Made by a program: the position numbers and the translations under genes. From Bacteroidales bacterium (GTDB lineage: Bacteria > Bacteroidota > Bacteroidia > Bacteroidales > P3): 64,000 nucleotides of DNA. Shown here in pieces: positions 1-44,037 of this stretch (the stretch's first letter is position 1; every line of letters starts with the position of its first letter). The stretch lies in assembly GCA_009783885.1 (NCBI GenBank), contig WRCN01000007.1:16953-80952 (forward strand), read 5' to 3'. Below the pieces are notes generated by a model that saw nothing but the letters and a program-made list of their open reading frames with translations, made no database searches and had not been told where the DNA came from.

Positions 1-301
1 TTTTCGCCTCTTTGTCGATTTCTTTCAGCAGTTTCAAACTATCAACACTATGTATCAAATGCACAAACGGCGCGATATATTTGACTTTATTTGTCTGTAA
101 ATGCCCAACGAAATGCCAGCGAATATCATTAGGTAGTTGCGGGTATTTTTCAATCAATTCCTGCACTTTATTTTCGCCAAAATCTCGCTGACCGGCTTCG
201 TAGACTTCTTGCAAATTCGAAACCGGCTTTGTTTTTGAGACCGCGATTAACTTCACGTTTTCGGGAATTTGTTCTAAAATGTATTTGAGGTTTTCGGCAA
301 T
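1..301 (-). CDS. yggS: YggS-family pyridoxal-phosphate homeostasis protein, N-terminal about 100 aa (3' end runs off the window)
   Basis: Own minus-strand translation: IAENLKYILEQIPENVKLIAVSKTKPVSNLQEVYEAGQRDFGENKVQELIEKYPQLPNDIRWHFVGHLQTNKVKYIAPFVHLIHSVDSLKLL. The SKTKP lysine motif and HxxGxLQxNK are typical of YggS. It is absent from the ORF track because the frame has no stop inside the window. There is no canonical in-frame start next to the conserved N-terminus. Confidence 0.75.
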   Translation of the reverse strand, partial: MAENLKYILEQIPENVKLIAVSKTKPVSNLQEVYEAGQRDFGENKVQELIEKYPQLPNDIRWHFVGHLQTNKVKYIAPFVHLIHSVDSLKLLKEIDKEAK

Positions 302-313
302 TACACTTCGTTC

Positions 314-390
314 GTCATGTTGAGCGAAGCGAAGCGAAGTCGAAACATCCCCTTGAAGTAGGGGGATTCCTCGACTTCGCTCGGAATGAC
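314..390. repeat. GAGCG-core hairpin repeat, two units in opposite orientation
   Basis: GTCATGTT-GAGCGAAGC(GAAGC)GAAGTCGA-AACATCCCC, loop TTGAAGTA, then GGGGGATTCC-TCGACTTCGCTC-GGAATGAC. It lies inside an uninterrupted minus-strand reading frame. Confidence 0.85.
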
Positions 391-967
391 GTGTATAATC
401 GTACCCCAACATTTGATTAGCCTTCTCTATCTCCCCTGCTCGTATGAGTTTCCGAATTTCCGACGAACTCACTTTTTCTCCATTTTCAAAATGTTGCTCG
501 GGAAAAATTTCAGCTTCAAAGCCGTGTTTATTCGCCAATTCCTGAAGTTTTTCGAAATTTCCCTTGCGATTATTTCCGAAATTATGATTAAATCCAACTA
601 AAAACAATTTCGGATTAAGATTTTTTACAATAAATTCCTCAACAAAACCAGTATACGACAACGTTGCAAACTCTTTGGTAAACGGCAATACAACCAAATA
701 ATCAATCCCGATGTCTCGAAATAATTCTATTTTTTCGTCTAATGTTGTCAGTAGAAACACGTCTTTTCCGTAGCGTTCAGGCGCAATCACTTCGCAAGGA
801 TGTTTGTCGAATGTAACCACAACCGACTTTGCAGAAAACTCTTTCGCTTTGCTTTTCAACTCATCCAAAATCAAGCGATGGGCGATGTGGACGCCGTCGA
901 AAATGCCAACTGTGACGACAGTTGGCTGTTCTTTTGGAAAATTTTGTATGTTTGTGATTATTTGCAT
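391..967 (-). CDS. ribF: FAD synthetase (FMN adenylyltransferase) domain protein: RibF N-terminal domain only, no riboflavin-kinase domain and no stop codon before the downstream repeat
   Basis: Own translation from ATG at 967: MQIITNIQNFPKEQPTVVTVGIFDGVHIAHRLILDEL...VSSSEIRKLIRAGEIEKANQMLGYDYT. It carries the GxFDGxHxxH and SSxIR motifs of the RibF adenylyltransferase domain. About 186 aa end at the usual domain boundary, then the frame reads straight into the repeat at 314-390. Confidence 0.65.
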
Positions 968-975
968 CTCTCTCC

Positions 976-1039
976 GTCATTCCGAGCGCAGTCGAGGAAT
1001 CCCCCTTGCATGGGATGTCTCGGCTACGCTCGACATGAC
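976..1039. repeat. GAGCG-core hairpin repeat pair
   Basis: GTCATTCC-GAGCGCAGTCGA-GGAATCCCCC, loop TTGCAT, then GGGATGTC-TCGGCTACGCTC-GACATGAC. It sits between the ribF-like start (967) and the stop of the upstream gene (1045). Confidence 0.85.
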
Positions 1040-1044
1040 GCGTT

Positions 1045-2907
1045 TTATAAATTAAACGTTGCTCCCACAATAAAATTCGTCCTAAACGACCTGTAATTAT
1101 ACCAATGATAATACTTTTGGTTCAGTATATTATTCAAATCCAAAAACGCTGACCAACGTCTGTTGAAGCGGTATTCGGCGCCTATGCTCCAATCTACGAT
1201 GGGTTTGAAGGTTTCGAGTTTTGGAGTAATGAGTTCTATTTTAGAAAAATCATGATATTTTGTTCCTGCAAAAACATACAATTGTGTTTTCAAAATAATT
1301 TTGTTCTGCATGTTGTATCGTGCCATTAAATTGGCTTCATACTTAGGTTTGTAAAGAATTTCATCATCATAAAAATTTGCACGGGCCATTGCAGAAATAG
1401 CAATTTTTTCATCCAAATGATAGTTCAAATTGGCTTGCAGTTGGAAACAGTTGATATCTTGGTACGTTGAATTGAAAAATGGTGTTGGTACAGGCGTTGG
1501 AAGACCAATATAAATATTGTCATTAGGTAAGTAGTATGTCCTCCAAGCATCAAAACTCAACAAACGTTTGTATGAAACAAGTTTTCCTTTCATTGAAAAA
1601 TCAATGGCTTTGCTCAATGCTGTATTTAAGCCTAAATAATATTCACGGTGCAGTTGGGTTATATATGGCCCAAAATATAAAAGAAAAACTTCTTTGCCTA
1701 AAAGAGCAAATGGGTTGGCTTCAACAATTTTTTGAGAAGTCAAATATTCTGCATTGCCGTCTAATCCAAATTCTATAGCGAACAAATTATCAATCAAATT
1801 AAATTTGGCATGAAGTGTTGGTACTAATTGGAAGTCCGTTTTTGTCTTTATCTCGTACATATCATTGGCAACTTCATCAAACGTATTAATTCTTAAACCT
1901 AAAGAAAAATCATGTCCTGAAAAACGTAATTTTCCATAAGGGTGAAATTTTAACATTTTGGATCCATTGTCAATTTGATATGTTTTACCATCAAGTGGGT
2001 CATCAGGAAGCACTAAAACCAAGTCTTTACTACTATTTGTTTTGTGCCAACCGAAAGAAACATCAAGACCGATGGTGGTTTGATTAAAGATAGAATGTCT
2101 AAAATCGAATGTTTGATGTGTGTTTCCATCAAATCCTACTGACCATTCTTTTGTGTTGAAATAATCGGGTTGAAAATACCATATTGGATTTCTTATGTCG
2201 AAATTAGGTTGAAACATATTTATTGCTAAATTTCCACTGTAGCCAAAACTGTTTGGCTCTGTGTTATTGTCAGAAAATCCAATATTTCCTCCAACGTTGT
2301 TGTAAATTAGTTTATATTGTTCATCTTTCAAAAAACGTTCATCATTGGTAACGCTGTCATAGTGCAAAAACGGAACATCCGCCCCATACGCCGAATACCG
2401 CTGTCTATCATAATAAAAATCCGTAGAAACAATGGCTTTTTTGCCAAAATAACTACCAAACAATTTAATCAAATTCTCCGAATTATCAAACGGCACTTCG
2501 TGATTTTTAAACGTACCTCTCGACGAATGGTGTTTGAGATGTGTACCATATTGCCATTGTGCTGAACGCTCGCTACCGTAGAATAATTCACCGTAAGCCG
2601 TTGCATAATTACCAAAACCCCCACGCACATGAAGCGGCGAAAGTTTGGTCAACGGTTCGCCTGCAACTCTTGCAGGTCTGATGTGATCCATGCCGAACGA
2701 GGTTACCACCTTACGGCTCAAAATGTCGAAACGCGCTTCGCGAGGTCTCAAAACGCTGTCAATCGTTTGCGGCATAACATTGATTTTATGCGCATCAAGC
2801 ACCGTTGGTTGAAATGGAGCGATAACTGTTACCTGTTCGTTTTGAACTTGGGGAAACAGGGTTCCTGCGAGGAGAAGTAATGTGATTGTGATTTGTATTT
2901 TTTTCAT
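1045..2907 (-). CDS. Outer-membrane beta-barrel protein (putative porin-like), function uncertain
   Basis: 620-aa ORF with signal peptide MKKIQITITLLLLAGTLFPQ. It is rich in aromatic/Gly/Asn residues in an alternating beta-strand pattern through to the C-terminus (FIVGATFNL). It lies directly downstream of the TPR gene on the same strand. Confidence 0.55.
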   Translation of the reverse strand: MKKIQITITLLLLAGTLFPQVQNEQVTVIAPFQPTVLDAHKINVMPQTIDSVLRPREARFDILSRKVVTSFGMDHIRPARVAGEPLTKLSPLHVRGGFGNYATAYGELFYGSERSAQWQYGTHLKHHSSRGTFKNHEVPFDNSENLIKLFGSYFGKKAIVSTDFYYDRQRYSAYGADVPFLHYDSVTNDERFLKDEQYKLIYNNVGGNIGFSDNNTEPNSFGYSGNLAINMFQPNFDIRNPIWYFQPDYFNTKEWSVGFDGNTHQTFDFRHSIFNQTTIGLDVSFGWHKTNSSKDLVLVLPDDPLDGKTYQIDNGSKMLKFHPYGKLRFSGHDFSLGLRINTFDEVANDMYEIKTKTDFQLVPTLHAKFNLIDNLFAIEFGLDGNAEYLTSQKIVEANPFALLGKEVFLLYFGPYITQLHREYYLGLNTALSKAIDFSMKGKLVSYKRLLSFDAWRTYYLPNDNIYIGLPTPVPTPFFNSTYQDINCFQLQANLNYHLDEKIAISAMARANFYDDEILYKPKYEANLMARYNMQNKIILKTQLYVFAGTKYHDFSKIELITPKLETFKPIVDWSIGAEYRFNRRWSAFLDLNNILNQKYYHWYNYRSFRTNFIVGATFNL

Positions 2908-2936
2908 TTTTTCTAGTTTTAAAAGGTTAAAGGTGC

Positions 2937-3001
2937 GTGGTCGTTTCGACTCCGCTCAACGACCACAATAAGGTTGGTGGCTGAGCGGAGCCGAAGCCAC
3001 C
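2937..3001. repeat. GAGCG-core hairpin repeat pair
   Basis: GTGGTCGTT-TCGACTCCGCTC-AACGACCAC, then GGTGGCT-GAGCGGAGCCGA-AGCCACC. It abuts the stop codon of the TPR gene (3003). Confidence 0.85.
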
Positions 3002-3002
3002 T

Positions 3003-6000
3003 CTAAAATTCATCGGGCAACATAATCAAGTCTTCCTCCCCGGCTTCTTCGGCGCGTCTTCTATCTTCTTCAGCGCGGAGTTGAGCTTCTTTGTCCAAAA
3101 TAGTTTGGATTCCGAGTCTAGCGGTTTCTATGATACCATCATTTTCGATATCATAGTTATCAATGATACTTTGAAACGTTTGTTTGGCTTGCAAAAAGTT
3201 ACCGCGTTCCGCATAAATCGCGCCCCAAAGCAAATACGTTTTTGCCAAAAAATAATCGCTCGAAGGGGCTTCGTTGATAAATTCAAAAATTTTCTTTTCT
3301 GCTAATTCGAATTCTTTCTTGGTAAACAACTCTTCGATTTCGAAGTAGCGTGCTTGTGCCACAAACTCGCTGTTTTTTGAATTTCGCAATTTAGCAAAGG
3401 TTTCTCTTGCTAACTCATTTTGTCCCAAACGCTGTGCCGACGTGGCGATGGCGTGATTGGCTTCATCTCGAATATCATCGGTCAATTTACCCAATTTCAA
3501 CACATTTTGAGCGGCTGCCAAAATTCGATCATCGTTACCCAAGCGCATTTCGCAACGCATGATGGCGATGATAGCCATGTTGATATTTGCTGTATTTTCG
3601 GAAAATTCCGACAGTAAGGTGTAAAGTTTCAAAGCCTGTTGAAAATCTTGCAAATCGAACGAAATCTTAGCCGCGCTGATGATTGAGCGTTCTGTAAAAT
3701 TTGATTCCGGGAGAGAAACCACCGTTAGAAAATGTTTTCGTGCTTGCAGCACATTACCGCTTCGCATTTCGCAATCTGCTAAATAATACATGGCTTCAGT
3801 GATAAATATACCATTCGGAAATCGCTGTAAATAACTCTCCAAAGAGGGTTTCGCACCATGACAATCGTTTTCCAAATAGCGGTTTTCGGCTGCAGAGAAA
3901 GCAATCGAATCTTGCGTATTTTCATGGATATTTGCCCCAATTTTTCTTACATAAGCAAAGAAATCATCGGTTCTGTTAATTGCCACATAAATATTTCGTA
4001 AGCTCATCAAAGCCTCTTTGGCCTCTGTGGTTCCTGGATGATCGGCAATCACTTTTTCAAACATCGCAATCGCTTCATTATTTTTTCCGATGTTGTAATA
4101 AATCAAACCTTGTTTGAGTAAAGCCATTTTTCCGAAACTTGATCGCCCGTGCTGAGTTGAGAGTAACCTGTAGTATTCGAGAGCTTTTGCGTTGTTGTCC
4201 AAAATCAGGTATGTACTTGCTAATTCGTTGATGGCTTTGGGTATCAACGGCGAATTTTCATAGTTTTTGAGTATGGAAAGTAAGGTTGTGATTGCGGCAT
4301 CATATCGTCCTAAAATGCGCAAACTGATTGCCTTTTGAAGCATTGCATAATCTCTATCGGCTTGGTTCAATTGTATAGCCGATTCATAATTTTGCAACGC
4401 TTCATTGAGTCTTCTTTGCATAAAAAACGCATCGCCCAAACGCAAGAACGCATCATTCAAAATCGCTTGGTTCAACTGATTTTTGTGCTGAATAACTATT
4501 GTAAAGTATTTGGCTGCTTGCGCATAATTTCTCATTTGGAAATTGGCATATCCTGCCCCATAAGCGGCAAATGGGAATTCCGGAAACGTTTCGAAAAGCG
4601 ATGAAAAAAGAGCTCTTTCATAATTTTCAAGGGCATCCTCAAATCGCCCCATGCGGTAATACGCCTCGCCTTTCCAATAAAATGCCAATAGCGTCAACTT
4701 CTCGTCGTAACTGCTTTGAATCGCTTCATCAAACATTCTTTGCGCTTCAATAAATTTCATTTCATTGAACAATTCAACCCCACGATTAAAAGCAATTCGT
4801 TGCGCGGCTTCGAGCAAACGTGGGTCTTTGCGCTTTACGTTAGCAATGGAAGCATAAGCATCTCTGTAATTTCTCGTAGTAGTGTACATCGCTACCAAAT
4901 AGCCGTAAATTTCGTCCGCATATCTTGAATCGGGATATTTTTCTAAATAGGATTGCATGGCTTTTAGCGCTTCGTTGTATGGACTTGGCGAAAGTTTATA
5001 CGACAGTTTTGCATAATTGTAAAATGCGTCTTCTTGTATACGTTCGTCAATATCGATTTTAGAAGCATCAAAAAACGCAGCTTGCGCAAATTTATATTGG
5101 CCAAGTTTCACATAACAATCGCCCAAATGGTAGAGAGCGCTTTGTTTCATCAAGTCATTTTCTTCAGAAGTATTCACTACTTTTTGGAAATAAATCACAG
5201 CCGTATCACATTTTCCAAGACTGTAATACACAAATCCCATAATGTAATTATCTTCTCTAGAAGGCGTTACCGCAGATTTTTCAAAATACAACTGCAAAAA
5301 TGGCAAAGCTTCAGCATACCTGTTTTCATTGTAAAACGCTTCGCCTATTAATCGTGAAATCTCAACAGCCCTGCGAGGTGTAGCCGTTTCAAGTAAGGCA
5401 GGACCTTGTGCAATAATTAAATCATTTTTGCCTTGTCTGTAAAAAATTTGCATCATGTAGAATGGCACAATTGAACCGAATGTTTCATCATTTTGCAATT
5501 TTTCAAACTCAATCAAAGCCGATTGGAAGTTGCCTTCGGTATAGAGAATATAAGCATAAAAATACGTTGCTAAAGACGTGTAGCGGCTTTCTCTGTTTCT
5601 TATTTCTGCAAAATGAGGTTTCGCCTTTGACATTTGGTTTCTCATAAAATAGGAGTACCCTTTTTTGAAATGATATTCTATTTGCTGTTTTTCAGGCAAA
5701 TCCCTCACATCAATTTGATCGTAAACTTCGATGGCTCTCTCATAGTCTTTTTCCACATAAAACACGTTTGCCAATTCTAACATAACTTCTGGAATTCGCG
5801 TACTTTCCGGATAATCCAAAATAAACTGTTGCAAATTTTTCACCGCATCACGATGTGATAACCTTGCCGACGAAACGGCAGCATAAAATGCGGCATTCAT
5901 CGCCATCATCGGGTCAGTTTTTCTTGTTTCTGCAACTACCGAACGCATCAACTCGTTGGCAGATGCAAATTTTTCGAGATTAAAAAGTTCTACACCCATG

Positions 6001-6107
6001 CGGTATTTTTCGCCCGGGTTTCTTTTCGACATGGTTTGTTGTCCGATTGCAGAAACACTCATTAACACAAACATTCCAAACAACAAACATTTAATTATTT
6101 TTTTCAT
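3003..6107 (-). CDS. Large tetratricopeptide-repeat (TPR) protein, secreted
   Basis: 1034-aa ORF with signal peptide MKKIIKCLLFGMFVLMSVSAIGQQ. It has many 34-aa helical repeats with the A/Y/G spacing of TPRs and an acidic C-terminus. Confidence 0.8.
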   Translation of the reverse strand: MKKIIKCLLFGMFVLMSVSAIGQQTMSKRNPGEKYRMGVELFNLEKFASANELMRSVVAETRKTDPMMAMNAAFYAAVSSARLSHRDAVKNLQQFILDYPESTRIPEVMLELANVFYVEKDYERAIEVYDQIDVRDLPEKQQIEYHFKKGYSYFMRNQMSKAKPHFAEIRNRESRYTSLATYFYAYILYTEGNFQSALIEFEKLQNDETFGSIVPFYMMQIFYRQGKNDLIIAQGPALLETATPRRAVEISRLIGEAFYNENRYAEALPFLQLYFEKSAVTPSREDNYIMGFVYYSLGKCDTAVIYFQKVVNTSEENDLMKQSALYHLGDCYVKLGQYKFAQAAFFDASKIDIDERIQEDAFYNYAKLSYKLSPSPYNEALKAMQSYLEKYPDSRYADEIYGYLVAMYTTTRNYRDAYASIANVKRKDPRLLEAAQRIAFNRGVELFNEMKFIEAQRMFDEAIQSSYDEKLTLLAFYWKGEAYYRMGRFEDALENYERALFSSLFETFPEFPFAAYGAGYANFQMRNYAQAAKYFTIVIQHKNQLNQAILNDAFLRLGDAFFMQRRLNEALQNYESAIQLNQADRDYAMLQKAISLRILGRYDAAITTLLSILKNYENSPLIPKAINELASTYLILDNNAKALEYYRLLSTQHGRSSFGKMALLKQGLIYYNIGKNNEAIAMFEKVIADHPGTTEAKEALMSLRNIYVAINRTDDFFAYVRKIGANIHENTQDSIAFSAAENRYLENDCHGAKPSLESYLQRFPNGIFITEAMYYLADCEMRSGNVLQARKHFLTVVSLPESNFTERSIISAAKISFDLQDFQQALKLYTLLSEFSENTANINMAIIAIMRCEMRLGNDDRILAAAQNVLKLGKLTDDIRDEANHAIATSAQRLGQNELARETFAKLRNSKNSEFVAQARYFEIEELFTKKEFELAEKKIFEFINEAPSSDYFLAKTYLLWGAIYAERGNFLQAKQTFQSIIDNYDIENDGIIETARLGIQTILDKEAQLRAEEDRRRAEEAGEEDLIMLPDEF

Positions 6108-18123: not shown

Positions 18124-18141
18124 GATTGTTTTTATTAAGTC

Positions 18142-18238
18142 GTCACTCCGAGCGCAGTCGAGGAACCGAAGCACGAAGTGCGAGTTCGGCGAAGCCGATC
18201 CCTTCGCTATGGGATGTTTCGACTGCGCTTGACATGAC
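18142..18238. repeat. GAGCG-core hairpin composite (two units plus small internal hairpins)
   Basis: GTCACTCC-GAGCGCAGTCGA-GGAAC, spacer, then GGGATGTT-TCGACTGCGCTT-GACATGAC. It forms the last 32 or so codons and the stop of ptrB. Confidence 0.85.
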
Positions 18239-20287
18239 GTGATTATTCAATGTTTTTAATAGAAAAGTGTATTCAAGTGCAGTTTCTTTCAATGCTTCAA
18301 ATCGTCCGGAAGCACCACCATGCCCGAAGTTCATCTCTGTCTTGAATAGTAATAGATTGTTGTCCGTTTTCGTTGCTCGCAGTTTGGCAACCCATTTTGC
18401 AGGCTCCCAATATTGCACTTGCGAATCATGATAACCCGTTGTTATCAACATATTCGGATAGTTTTGCGGTTTTACATTATCGTAAGGCGAATAAGACAAC
18501 ATATAATCGAAAAATTCTTTTTCGTTGGGATTTCCCCATTCTTCATATTCACCTGTTGTTAGCGGAATATCTTCGTCGAGCATCGTTGTAACCACGTCTA
18601 CAAAAGGCACTTGCGCGATGAGTGTGTGAAACAAATCAGGTCGCATGTTTGCTACTACACCAATCAGCAATCCGCCTGCGCTCCCACCCATTGCTGCAAG
18701 TTTTTGAGGTGATGTAAAATTCTCTTGTATCAACATTTCTGCACAAGCGATAAAGTCTAAAAACGTGTTTTTTTTCTTTAAGAGTTTTGCATTTTCATAC
18801 CATTTTCTGCCCATTTCCTCGCCACCTCGAATGTGCGCAATCGCATACACGAAACCTCTATCTAAGAGGCTCAATCGTGCCGAACTGAAATTCGGGTCAA
18901 TTGAAATTCCATACGAACCATAACCATAAAGCAAGGTTGGATTTTGTCCGTTTTTTTCCACACCCTTTCTGTAAACAATCGAAATAGGTACGCGTTCACC
19001 ATCGTGAGAAATTGCCCACAAACGTTTGCTTTCGTAATTTTCAGGTTTGAAATTTTTATCTAAAACCACCTGCTGTTTCAGCATCACGATTTCGCGAGTT
19101 TTCAGATTGTATTCGTACGAAGTGCGTGGCGTTGTCATAGATGTATAACCGTATCTCAACGTCGTGGCATAAAAATCCGGATTGTAGCCAATACCTGTAT
19201 TATAGACTTCTTCGGGAAATTCAAGATAGTAATCCTCGCCGTTTTTCAAACTGATAATTCGAATATGATTGAGCGCATTTTTTCGCTCCTCTAAAACCAA
19301 ATAATCGGAAAAAACTTCAAAATCCTCCAATTTCACATCATCACGATGCGGAATGATGTCTTTCCAATTCTCTTTGTTTGTCAAACGTTCTGGCGTTTTC
19401 ATCAATTTGAAATTGGTGGCTTGCCAATTCGTCATCACAAAAAAATGATCTTCAAAGTGCTCGATAGAATATTCCAAATCTTTTTCTCTGCGATGAAATA
19501 TTTGAAATTCTGCTTCGGGCTGATTAGCAGGAATAATACGATATTCAGACGATGTAGAACTCCCTGAAAACAAAAAAACGTAGCTTTCCGATTTCGTTCG
19601 TCCCACGCCAACATTAAATTTTGCATCTTTCTCAAAAAAGATTTCTTGTTCGTTTTTCGGATTTCCAAGCGTATATCTTATCACTCGGCAATCACGCAAT
19701 TGGCGGTTTTGCTTAACATAAAACAAGGTTTTGTTATCTGCAGTCCAAGTAAAATTTCCTGAAGTTTTTTCAATTTTTTCGTTCAAGATTTCACCGGTTT
19801 CTAAATTTTTAAACCAAATATCATAAATCCGACGACTTACAAAATCCACTGCAAACGCCAACATTTTATTATCGTCGCTAATCGCTAATTCGCTCACAGC
19901 ACAGAACGCGTGACCTTCGGCAAGTTTATTCACATCCAAAATTATTTCCTCTAAATTTTCCAATGTTTGGAATTTTCGGCAATAAATCGGGTATTCTTTG
20001 CCTGTTTCGTAACGTGTGTAATACCAATATGCTTTGCGAAAAAACGGAACGCTTTGGTCGTCCTCTTTGATACGCGATTTGATTTCATCAAACAGTTGTT
20101 TTTGTAAGCCTTCCGTATCTTTCATTATCGCATCGCCATAAGCATTTTCGGCATTCAAATACCCCAAAACATCCGGCGTATCACGCTGATTCAGCCAAAA
20201 ATAATCGTCTTGACGAACAACATCGTGCATAGTCAACACTTTCGGATCTTTCTTTGCAATTGGCGCAGTATTTTGCGAATTTATCAT
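18143..20287 (-). CDS. ptrB: Oligopeptidase B / prolyl oligopeptidase family S9A serine protease with a repeat-encoded C-terminal tail
   Basis: N-terminal beta-propeller region (DDYFWLNQRD) and catalytic Ser motif GGSAGGLL. The C-terminal 32 aa, HVMSSAVETSHSEGIGFAELALRASVPRLRSE, come from the repeat. Confidence 0.8.
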   Translation of the reverse strand: MINSQNTAPIAKKDPKVLTMHDVVRQDDYFWLNQRDTPDVLGYLNAENAYGDAIMKDTEGLQKQLFDEIKSRIKEDDQSVPFFRKAYWYYTRYETGKEYPIYCRKFQTLENLEEIILDVNKLAEGHAFCAVSELAISDDNKMLAFAVDFVSRRIYDIWFKNLETGEILNEKIEKTSGNFTWTADNKTLFYVKQNRQLRDCRVIRYTLGNPKNEQEIFFEKDAKFNVGVGRTKSESYVFLFSGSSTSSEYRIIPANQPEAEFQIFHRREKDLEYSIEHFEDHFFVMTNWQATNFKLMKTPERLTNKENWKDIIPHRDDVKLEDFEVFSDYLVLEERKNALNHIRIISLKNGEDYYLEFPEEVYNTGIGYNPDFYATTLRYGYTSMTTPRTSYEYNLKTREIVMLKQQVVLDKNFKPENYESKRLWAISHDGERVPISIVYRKGVEKNGQNPTLLYGYGSYGISIDPNFSSARLSLLDRGFVYAIAHIRGGEEMGRKWYENAKLLKKKNTFLDFIACAEMLIQENFTSPQKLAAMGGSAGGLLIGVVANMRPDLFHTLIAQVPFVDVVTTMLDEDIPLTTGEYEEWGNPNEKEFFDYMLSYSPYDNVKPQNYPNMLITTGYHDSQVQYWEPAKWVAKLRATKTDNNLLLFKTEMNFGHGGASGRFEALKETALEYTFLLKTLNNHVMSSAVETSHSEGIGFAELALRASVPRLRSE

Positions 20288-21700: not shown

Positions 21701-21707
21701 CAAAAAT

Positions 21708-21780
21708 AAATTGAGAATTGAAAATGGAAAATGGAGAATGAAAAATAATTTTCAATTTTCAATTCTCAATTCTCAATTTT
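21708..21780. repeat. Inverted pair of 7-nt tandem repeat arrays between divergent promoters
   Basis: AAATTGAGAATTGAAAATGGAAAATGGAGAATGAAAA-ATA-ATTTTCAATTTTCAATTCTCAATTCTCAATTTT. The right arm is TTTTCAA x2 plus TTCTCAA x2. Confidence 0.8.
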
Positions 21781-21784
21781 TTCG

Positions 21785-25690: not shown

Positions 25691-25810
25691 TATGAATTTA
25701 CGAAAAATAGAATCAGATAAATTTGAGATTTGACCGGCTTTTCTTTGGAAAAATAACAACGAGTTCAATGGAAAAAAAATCGTTGGTTAGAGGGCTGATT
25801 TTGCGTTTGC

Positions 25811-25870
25811 CATTCCGAACGAAGTGAGGAATCTGTTAGCAAGTAGATTTCTAACTTCGTTCGGAATGAC
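25811..25870. repeat. Diverged hairpin repeat pair (core GAACGAAGTGA)
   Basis: CATTCC-GAACGAAGTGA-GGAATC tgttagcaagta GATTTC-TAACTTCGTTC-GGAATGAC. It shares GGAATCTGTTAGC with the element at 8594. Confidence 0.75.
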
Positions 25871-25884
25871 ACCTTTCATTTTGA

Positions 25885-41617: not shown

Positions 41618-42931
41618 ATGTCTCTCGCAGGCAAAAATATCATTGTAGGAATTAGCGGAGGGATTGCAGCTTACAAAACTCTTTCGCTTATTCGGCTTTT
41701 CGTGAAAAACGGGGCTAATGTAAAAGTTGTTGTAACACCGAATGCCCTGAATTTTGTAACAAAATTATCATTGCAAACGCTGTCGAAAAATAAAATTTAC
41801 GACAGCGTTTTTTCTGAAATCAACGACTATTCGACCGAACATATTGCTTTGACTGATTGGGCTGATATGATGGTTGTTGCACCTGCCACAGCAAATATCA
41901 TCGGGAAATTCGCCACCGGTATTGCAGATGATGCCCTATCAACAACATTTTTAGCATTCGACAAACCTGTTTTTATTGCACCTGCAATGAACAACAAAAT
42001 GTACGAAAATCCGGCTGTTCAACGCAATTTACAAACGTTAATTGAGTGTGGCATTCATACGATTGAATCCCCAATCGGCGAATTGGCATGTGGTTGCGAA
42101 GGCAAAGGCAGAATGGAAGAACCTGAGGTGATTTTTGAGCGTATCACCGGTTTTTTTTTGACCTTAGAACATGCTGACCATGCTCCTACAAAACCGTTTT
42201 GTGGCAAAAAGGTTTTGGTAACGGCAGGTCCGACTTACGAAGTCATAGACCCCGTTCGATTTATTGGTAATCATTCATCAGGATTGATGGGGATTTGCAT
42301 TGCCGATGAGCTTGCTGATCGCGGTGCAGAAGTGATTTTAGTTTGTGGACCAAGTGTGATCAAATCGAAAAATTCTTCGGTTAAACGTATGGATGTTGTT
42401 TCTGCAAAAGACATGTTTGACGTTTGTAAACAACATTTCGAAACTGCTGATATTACCGTGTGTTCAGCAGCTGTTGCGGATTATACCCCAAAACAAATTG
42501 CATCACAAAAAATCAAGAAAAAAGACAATGATTTAGTCCTGAAACTCACCAAAACTCCTGATATTTTAGGTTATTTAGGTGAACATAAAACTTCTGAACA
42601 ATTTTTAGTTGGTTTCGCATTAGAAACGGAAAACGAATTTCAAAACGCCGAAACCAAGCTAAAATCAAAGCATTTGGATATGCTCGTTTTAAATTCTTTG
42701 AATGATGAAGGCGCAGGTTTTGGGCATATCACAAACAAAATTTCTATGCTTTTTAAACAAGGCACGGGTTGCGCTTCGACTCCGCTCAGCGCACGGACAT
42801 TGAGCGGAGCCGAAATGTCCGCGCCCACGATTAAACATTTTGAACTAAAAAATAAGATGGATGTGGCGAAGGATATTGTTGATGAAATTTTCAAAGCCGT
42901 CATGTCGAGCGCAGTCGAGACATCCCCTTAA
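41618..42931 (+). CDS. coaBC: Bifunctional phosphopantothenoylcysteine decarboxylase / phosphopantothenate-cysteine ligase, with repeat-encoded insert and tail
   Basis: CoaC motifs GISGGIAAYK and PAMNxxM. CoaB motifs VTAGPTxExIDPVRFIxNxSSG and AAVADY. The insert TGCASTPLSARTLSGAEMSAP and the tail VMSSAVETSP are encoded by repeats. Confidence 0.9.
   Translation: MSLAGKNIIVGISGGIAAYKTLSLIRLFVKNGANVKVVVTPNALNFVTKLSLQTLSKNKIYDSVFSEINDYSTEHIALTDWADMMVVAPATANIIGKFATGIADDALSTTFLAFDKPVFIAPAMNNKMYENPAVQRNLQTLIECGIHTIESPIGELACGCEGKGRMEEPEVIFERITGFFLTLEHADHAPTKPFCGKKVLVTAGPTYEVIDPVRFIGNHSSGLMGICIADELADRGAEVILVCGPSVIKSKNSSVKRMDVVSAKDMFDVCKQHFETADITVCSAAVADYTPKQIASQKIKKKDNDLVLKLTKTPDILGYLGEHKTSEQFLVGFALETENEFQNAETKLKSKHLDMLVLNSLNDEGAGFGHITNKISMLFKQGTGCASTPLSARTLSGAEMSAPTIKHFELKNKMDVAKDIVDEIFKAVMSSAVETSP
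42761..42826. repeat. GAGCG-core two-unit element inserted in frame in coaBC
   Basis: TGCGC-TTCGACTCCGCTCA-GCGCA, then GGACAT-TGAGCGGAGCCGAA-ATGTCC. Confidence 0.85.
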
Positions 42932-42964
42932 GCAGGGGGATTCCTCGACTACGCTCCGAATGAC
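42899..42964. repeat. GAGCG-core hairpin pair spanning the coaBC stop codon
   Basis: GTCATGTC-GAGCGCAGTCGA-GACATCCCC, loop TTAAGCA (the TAA stop lies in the loop), then GGGGGATTCC-TCGACTACGCTC-CGAATGAC. Confidence 0.85.
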
Positions 42965-43011
42965 GGACAAACAACTAAACAATTAAGCGACTAAACAACT
43001 AAACAAAACAT

Positions 43012-43917: not shown

Positions 43918-43918
43918 T

Positions 43919-43999
43919 GTAGGGGCGACCCCTTGTGGTCGCCCTCGTTGATATTTAACACAATTGCAAGTAAGGGCGACCACAAGGAGTCGCCCCTAC
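43919..43999. repeat. Inverted doublet of GTAG-headed REP-like hairpins (REPIN/BIME-like)
   Basis: 43919-43946 reads GTAGGGGCGAC-CCCTTGTG-GTCGCCC. The minus strand of 43974-43999 reads GTAGGGGCGAC-TCCTTGTG-GTCGCCC. The two copies differ by 1 nt and have a 27-nt spacer. Confidence 0.8.
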
Positions 44000-44037
44000 A
44001 CAATAAAAAATAAATTTTCAATCCAAATTCAAACCCC

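Follow-up and report, generated by a model that had tools for sequence, protein, structure and literature searches.

A stop-free frame joins FAD_syn and YggS modules

The window (the whole 64,000-nucleotide stretch of Bacteroidales DNA analysed here) carries at one end a minus-strand reading frame that runs stop-free from ATG 967-965 for 322 codons to the window edge (translation of window:1-967). This single frame encodes, in order, an FMN-adenylyltransferase (FAD_syn) module, a 29-codon repeat stretch and the N-terminus of YggS. In the translation, Pfam FAD_syn (PF06574) matches aa 12-169 (E 3e-46), Pfam Ala_racemase_N matches aa 223-321, and the NCBIfam YggS model TIGR00044 matches aa 232-321 (E 1.9e-26). 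The features, all read on the minus strand, are:

404-967, minus: FMN-adenylyltransferase-like (FAD_syn) module, aa 1-188, from ATG 967-965 to ...ANQMLG (PF06574, RibF models, CaFADS alignment)
407-412, minus: in-frame ATG 412-410 (M186) and TTG 409-407 (L187) (codon reading)
392-403, minus: Y-D-Y-T codons TAC GAT TAT ACA (junction comparison)
313-391, minus: 79-nt type-1 palindromic element CGTCAT...ATGACG, in-frame reading RHSERSRGIPLLQGDVSTSLRFAQHD (hairpin, copies, covariation)
305-312, minus: 8-nt spacer AACGAAGT from the element to the old yggS start, codons E-R-S with the preceding base
299-304, minus: GTA 302-304 at the position of the ancestral yggS ATG, then ATT 299-301 (junction comparison)
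1-304, minus: N-terminal ~101 codons of YggS/PLPBP, cut at the window edge (TIGR00044; PDB matches to YggS/PLPBP/PipY)

Junction sequence of 12 nt and 8 nt borders the 79-nt element, and the predicted linker from FAD_syn to YggS has ~34 residues, made up of YDYT, the element and ERS. The conserved YggS N-terminus, M-I-x-E-N-L-K in relatives, reads GTA ATT GCC GAA AAC (V-I-A-E-N) in the window. Besides ATG 967, the only canonical in-frame starts upstream of YggS are ATG 412-410 and TTG 409-407, and no in-frame ATG, GTG or TTG lies between M186/L187 and YggS.

A preliminary description, made from the letters of the window, had claimed one uninterrupted frame through the FAD_syn module, the repeat and YggS, and the 322 open codons together with the Pfam and NCBIfam matches to both domains bear this out. 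As it also stated, the ORF list holds no closed minus-strand ORF at 1-967, and YggS has no canonical start at its conserved N-terminus, where the codons are GTA ATT. Its 29-codon repeat is present as quoted; the repeat itself, however, is the 79-nt palindromic element, with junction sequence on its flanks. It had further placed the end of the adenylyltransferase where riboflavin kinase normally begins and reported the kinase half of ribF as absent, and both statements agree with the module comparison below.

The FAD_syn half and the missing riboflavin kinase

NCBIfam RibF models match only the first ~190 positions and score below their cut-offs (best 176.8 vs 295). Likewise, the alignment to the FAD synthetase of C. 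ammoniagenes (CaFADS, PDB 2X0K; E 1.3e-27) stops at chain residue 187, which is the boundary of the FMNAT and kinase modules. The FAD_syn module therefore ends at the place where RibF naturally bears its C-terminal domain.

We compared the residues of the window FAD_syn with those of CaFADS by alignment to 2x0k. H28, H31, N125, S164, P58 and F128 of CaFADS are kept, the kept FMNAT residues including H27, H30, N127 and S. Two changes, R161K and T165S, are conservative, and two positions differ, P56K (in an invariant FDKHPCE) and F126H (in GFNHNFG). Both of the latter are flavin-site positions and both are fixed across the kinase-less FAD_syn clade. The catalytic and substrate residue set of an FMNAT appears to be present in the window FAD_syn, and activity is predicted.

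With an HMM from 10 distant loci, a search of the 64-kb window and ~370 kb of loci found no riboflavin-kinase module (PF01687) either in the window or at any clade locus. All ~20 close loci lack the module, including the repeat-free junctions of L007, L010, L014 and L016, whereas at ≤45% identity nearly every locus encodes an ordinary bifunctional RibF, which has ~120-130 kinase residues and no yggS beside it. Loss of the kinase is thus clade-wide and predates the repeat insertion. The window module is homologous to the N-terminal FMNAT module of bifunctional RibF (type I FAD synthetase) and ends at the same module boundary; it differs in that no clade member has a kinase module and in that the C-terminal partner is YggS. 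Since the kinase module is lacking, the upstream half stands outside the bifunctional family, although akin to its FMNAT module. A distant stand-alone FAD_syn without an adjoining yggS, a 197-aa frame, was also seen in L040 (Ga0247610_10005671).

The YggS half and its internal hairpins

The window holds ~100 of the ~220 residues of YggS, and this query, cut by the window edge, scores 93.1 bits with TIGR00044 against a cut-off of 106.25. The motif AVSKTKP is present with its lysine, which we take to be the PLP Schiff-base residue by analogy with K36 in E. coli YggS. The full-length YggS product of the window's own gene, P0023, has 240 aa, and both P0023 and its relatives carry PF01168 and are named YggS. 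The relatives are ordinary proteins of ~220 aa. The window thus matches the YggS/PLPBP/PipY family (TIGR00044, PF01168) over ~100 N-terminal residues and in the SKTKP lysine motif. Unlike an ordinary YggS, this copy lacks its own start codon, is fused to the enzyme upstream and, in the part of P0023 beyond the window, bears an extra in-frame hairpin insert mid-protein. YggS homologues with N-terminal extensions do exist: the yeast protein begins ~20 residues earlier, and longer YggS proteins are found among cluster representatives.

The insert in P0023 is of a kind found across the clade, where differing near-perfect in-frame hairpins occupy one fixed loop site inside yggS (...KFGL..ILS / LQNVRICG). 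Examples begin GTAGGGGCGTATTGCATACGCCCC... and reach -56.6 and -59.8 kcal/mol. The inserts in relatives are, by locus:

L001, 6976-7095: yggS-internal hairpin insert
L002, 6433-6558: yggS-internal hairpin insert
L086, 1047-1142: yggS-internal hairpin insert
L087, 1347-1442: yggS-internal hairpin insert
L014, 1246-1338: yggS-internal hairpin insert

P0025 and P0031 carry no such yggS-internal hairpin. The family resembles window 43918-44000. Because these hairpins lie in frame inside yggS, reading through such elements appears to be routine in this clade.

A dispersed palindromic element at the junction

The 79-nt element at 313-391 folds into a hairpin of -40.9 kcal/mol (z = -5.7 vs shuffles). 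Four copies of the type-1 family lie in the 64-kb window, with arms at 365, 978, 18144 and 42939, where 0 are expected by chance. Besides the junction copy, these are:

975-1040, plus: type-1 copy, 66 nt, in the gap that separates ATG 967 from the stop (1045-1047) of the upstream outer-membrane-protein gene
18141-18239, plus: type-1 copy, 99 nt, with a larger loop, at a gene boundary
42898-42965, minus: type-1 copy, 68 nt, in which the ORF 41618-42931 ends

The first of these copies lies 7 nt from the FAD_syn ATG 967. Six type-1 copies share 23 base pairs, one of which covaries (C-G, A-U, U-A, U-G). The 79-nt variant is common to the window, L001 and L002. It carries an extra 11-nt segment and, in the 431 kb examined, is confined to the FAD_syn/yggS junction. 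Rfam 15 gave no match to the element (E up to 1 in 1-1300). A scan of the junction for promoters and terminators was negative; in particular, the hairpin is not followed by a U-tract terminator. In the window, what may be a duplicated yggS 5' end, a candidate target-site duplication too decayed to call, lies on both flanks of the element (TACGATTATACA and GTAATTGCCGA).

In-frame palindromic repeats are best known from Rickettsia, as the Rickettsia palindromic elements (RPEs); other intragenic repeats of the MITE/REP kind are ERIC, BOX and Correia. A review describes the in-frame insertion of intragenic MITEs as not unusual (PMC10969869). The element of the window shares with the RPE-like repeats that it is short, dispersed and hairpin-forming, and that it forms an in-frame part of a predicted protein at the surface or linker positions where such repeats are tolerated. 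It differs in its host, a Bacteroidales rather than a Rickettsia, and in its length (66-99 nt vs ~150 bp), the comparison being one of properties. In addition, it joins two overlapping genes by a frame shift instead of interrupting one gene, and the peptide that it encodes is not conserved as a peptide. With multiple dispersed copies, a conserved hairpin and a stop-free in-frame reading within coding sequence under selection, it resembles RPE and MITE/REP elements.

Further palindromic families lie between genes of the window at 2939-3001, 21705-21782, 25808-25871 and 43918-44000. Several of these four match types found at the FAD_syn/yggS junction of relatives.

Element-free relatives have overlapping genes

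A protein search returned three kinds of match: FAD_syn-only proteins of ~190 aa, separate YggS proteins of ~220 aa and one two-domain protein of 436 aa (P0001). The stand-alone FAD_syn relatives of ~190 aa are 70-89% identical to the window. At the ~20 close loci, which where named belong to termite-gut Bacteroidales MAGs (Emb289 isolates), yggS lies directly downstream of a kinase-less FAD_syn. This answers the comparison of synteny in relatives raised in the preliminary description: the two genes are adjacent in ~20 loci, and none of these has a full-length ribF.

The element-free loci L007, L010 and L014 reveal the arrangement that we take as ancestral. Here the two genes overlap in different frames. 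The yggS ATG falls within the G-Y-D codons of FAD_syn (GGxTATGATxxC), while FAD_syn, in the other frame, reaches its stop 10-15 codons into yggS. SSEIR and AVSKTKP are 124 nt apart in these three loci, compared with 222 nt in the window (+98) and 204 nt in L001, L002 and L004 (+80). Window 392-403 matches TAT GAT TAC AGA of L007, which contains ATGATTACAGA, at 9/12 positions; from this match and from its position, 392-403 appears to be a degraded version of the ancestral overlap with the yggS start.

A stop-free fusion is present in three lineages from independent assemblies, with diverged sequence and the same frame: the window, L001 (ENA; continuous ORF of 453 aa) and L002 (NCBI MAG; 477 aa). 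The fused ORF is the same in L001 and L004, two loci that derive from separate assemblies and are 99.77% identical. Length differences of 12 nt and 6 nt, each divisible by 3, separate the junction of the window from the L001/L002 junctions. The first codon of yggS is ATG in 14/14 loci without a type-1 element; at the fused junctions it is GTA (window), GTG (L001) and GCG (L002). The following codon, ATT or ATA, is the conserved Ile-2 codon of all relatives. Upstream, the M codon of ANQ-M is ATG in the window, TTG in L001 and CTG in L002, the ATG TTG pair of the window corresponding to TTG CTA and CTG TTA, respectively. An in-frame ATG in the hairpin loop of L001 and L002 corresponds to CTT in the window. 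In L086, the nearest relative at 89% identity, the two genes are split.

Two further loci vary the junction. In L016 (2998-3170; QMCD01000152.1) an element-free fusion passes from FAD_syn through RKQKLNPN to M-IAQNL, 438 aa from stop to stop, with the yggS ATG kept. In L006 (647-1091; Ga0082212_10492983) a FAD_syn 84% identical to that of the window is followed by the left type-1 arm and then by unrelated nuclease-like coding sequence, ...IDRMDSIDGYLRIVDYKTGG...; either the locus was rearranged at the element or the 1.1-kb contig is a chimera.

The gene order over 967-6107 of the window is also seen in L001, L002 and L088: a ~1035-aa TPR protein, a ~600-aa outer-membrane-like protein, FAD_syn, yggS and a divergent arginase-family gene. 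No Pfam match was obtained for the ~600-aa protein. Hairpins fill the first intergenic gaps, where promoters would hardly fit, and the genes may thus share one transcript.

An insertion hotspot

In other lineages the junction holds type-2 and type-3 elements, a type-4 hairpin or AT-rich palindromes, each with its own stop and ATG. The sequences include GTCATCCCGAACGAAGTGAGGGAC..., GTCATTCCCGCGCAGGCGGGAATCC..., GGTGGCTTCGACTACGCTCAGCCACC... as well as tandem AT-rich palindromic units. The junctions of L015, L017-L020, L086, L087, L088, L008, L011 and L012 together show at least five types of hairpin or palindrome besides type 1. The FAD_syn/yggS junction is thus an insertion hotspot. Roughly 1 in 3 to 1 in 6 insertions would by chance leave an in-frame, stop-free reading, so that one such outcome among the many insertions at the hotspot is no more than chance predicts.

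The terminal CGTCATTCC is common to types 1 and 3, as is a left boundary between GGT and CGTCAT. The junction element may have had one origin followed by turnover, may have been inserted repeatedly at the same site, or may have moved between lineages by recombination. A single origin is possible given that the 79-nt variant is confined to this junction within 431 kb, and that L001, L002, L006 and the type-3 loci have the left boundary in common; against it, the bearers of type 1 are not monophyletic on the FAD_syn tree, and the insertion point in the window is offset by 12 nt.

Origin of the fusion

We propose the following route to the fused frame. A kinase-less FAD_syn would have overlapped yggS in another frame, with its stop inside yggS. 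A 79-nt element of the REP/MITE kind would then have landed at the overlap, with a net insert of 98 nt in the window and 80 nt in L001 and L002. Both lengths are 2 mod 3, which brings FAD_syn into the frame of yggS, so that its old stop is never read, and the element is free of stops in that frame. Ribosomes starting at ATG 967 would make FAD_syn, the ~34-residue linker and YggS as one polypeptide, and the internal yggS ATG, no longer needed, would decay.

Selection on the two halves was compared with that on the linker. Both enzyme halves are under long-term purifying selection, FAD_syn with a dN/dS of 0.10-0.13 and YggS with one of 0.04-0.08, at a dS of at least 1. If the insertions are recent, the flank dN/dS would mostly record the history before fusion. 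The linker has a dN/dS of 0.3-1.1 with an unusually low dS of 0.1-0.5, which fits a linker that is young or constrained at the nucleotide level and not conserved as a peptide.

Overall, the uninterrupted frame is real and was created by insertion of the element, and it is likely to be translated as a tolerated fusion. Of the options in the preliminary description, a real fusion is the best supported, with the same frame in three diverged lineages and the yggS start decayed in all of them. We infer that both enzymes function as this fused polypeptide, and that the fusion is tolerated, being neutral or nearly so, and not selected for. One two-domain cluster (P0001) is found among the top protein matches, and no two-domain FAD_syn-YggS representative is present in the best 150 of 1.84 billion cluster representatives, where a fusion would score highest. 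Fusion is thus not a widely selected architecture, no example being seen beyond this clade, and FAD_syn-YggS does not appear to be an established family that recurs across taxa.

In the main rival reading, the locus would instead yield two proteins, with YggS made from its own non-canonical or lineage-specific start and read-through either incidental or limited by the hairpin. The window would then use ATT 301-299, L001 its GTG, and L001 and L002 the loop ATG. Gene calling offers precedents, since the call P0023 for the window begins MAENLK, i.e. at ATT, and NCBI annotated the YggS of L002 (P0024) from the hairpin-loop ATG. Codon 2, ATT or ATA, is a minor table-11 start and L001 retains GTG, so YggS might be initiated separately at a low level. 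FAD_syn itself starts 7 nt after another hairpin copy, so initiation beside hairpins is possible. RNA accessibility and A-richness around the yggS start do not clearly separate fused from unfused loci, and we gave them no weight. We nevertheless consider this unlikely. No candidate start is common to the three fused lineages, which leaves the FAD_syn start as the only shared route to YggS; GTA and GCG are not start codons, and the ATT/ATA codon, being the Ile-2 codon of all relatives, is no new adaptation. The Met of ANQML, named in the preliminary description as a possible start, is replaced by TTG in L001 and CTG in L002, and this option finds no support. With no stop in the frame, ribosomes from upstream must enter YggS unless they stall, and decay from GTG to GTA and GCG is expected if the start is no longer needed.

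A degenerative accident, in which the junction is damaged, the product poorly functional and one or both genes on the way to loss, perhaps backed up elsewhere in the genome, would suit the restriction of the architecture to few lineages, the lack of peptide-level selection on the linker, the split genes of the closest relative L086 and the broken junction at the same element in L006. It seems quite improbable, given that both halves are free of stops and frameshifts in all three lineages, that dN/dS is 0.04-0.13, that the catalytic motifs are intact and every indel is a multiple of 3, and that two populations of one species (L001 and L004) have the identical fused allele. Very improbable, and largely refuted, is a deletion scar or an assembly or sequencing artefact, by which the kinase half and the gene boundary were lost through repeats or mis-assembly. 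Multi-copy repeats could mislead assemblers, and the 1.1-kb contig of L006 does join the left arm of the element to unrelated sequence. However, the same fused junction, diverged and with its frame kept, comes from independent assemblies (the window, an ENA assembly and two NCBI MAGs), which argues against an artefact. The repeat-mediated deletion scar considered in the preliminary description fails because the kinase is also absent from element-free loci of the clade, being missing in ~20 clade loci and present in distant ones.

Finally, the fusion might be adaptive: a kinase-less FMN adenylyltransferase and YggS would have been joined more than once, with the element in the window, L001 and L002 and without it in L016, to give a two-cofactor flavin/B6 enzyme with a domesticated selfish repeat as its linker. 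We hold this to be improbable. If it were true, the clade-wide overlap of the two genes would point to an undescribed metabolic coupling of FAD and PLP; a literature search for a link between YggS and FMNAT found no relevant paper.

Implications for gene fusion and annotation

The tolerated fusion that we favor resembles stop-loss fusion of adjacent or overlapping genes, in that co-transcribed neighbours become one ORF; L016 (...LLGRKQKLNPN-MIAQNL) is an example from the same clade. It differs from plain stop-loss in its cause, an inserted, putatively mobile hairpin whose length sets the frame, and in the subsequent loss of the downstream start. Gene overlap, an insert of suitable length and the later decay of the internal start codon would together form a stepwise route by which a selfish hairpin may weld two enzymes, and would extend translated palindromic elements of the Rickettsia type to gut Bacteroidales. 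The tight coupling of a kinase-less RibF to yggS also raises the questions of where riboflavin kinase comes from and whether flavin and B6 metabolism are linked.

Such loci are a trap for annotation. The same structure has received three gene models from three pipelines: a fusion (P0001), a YggS from the loop ATG with FAD_syn uncalled (P0024) and a YggS from an ATT start (P0023). ORFs that end or start in type-1 copies indicate that the elements often supply last codons or apparent starts, and hence a risk of wrong gene models. At the 18141-18239 copy, a 714-aa ORF has its stop at 18143 and a 307-aa ORF its GTG at 18174; the stop of a 437-aa ORF, at 42931, lies inside the copy at 42898-42965.
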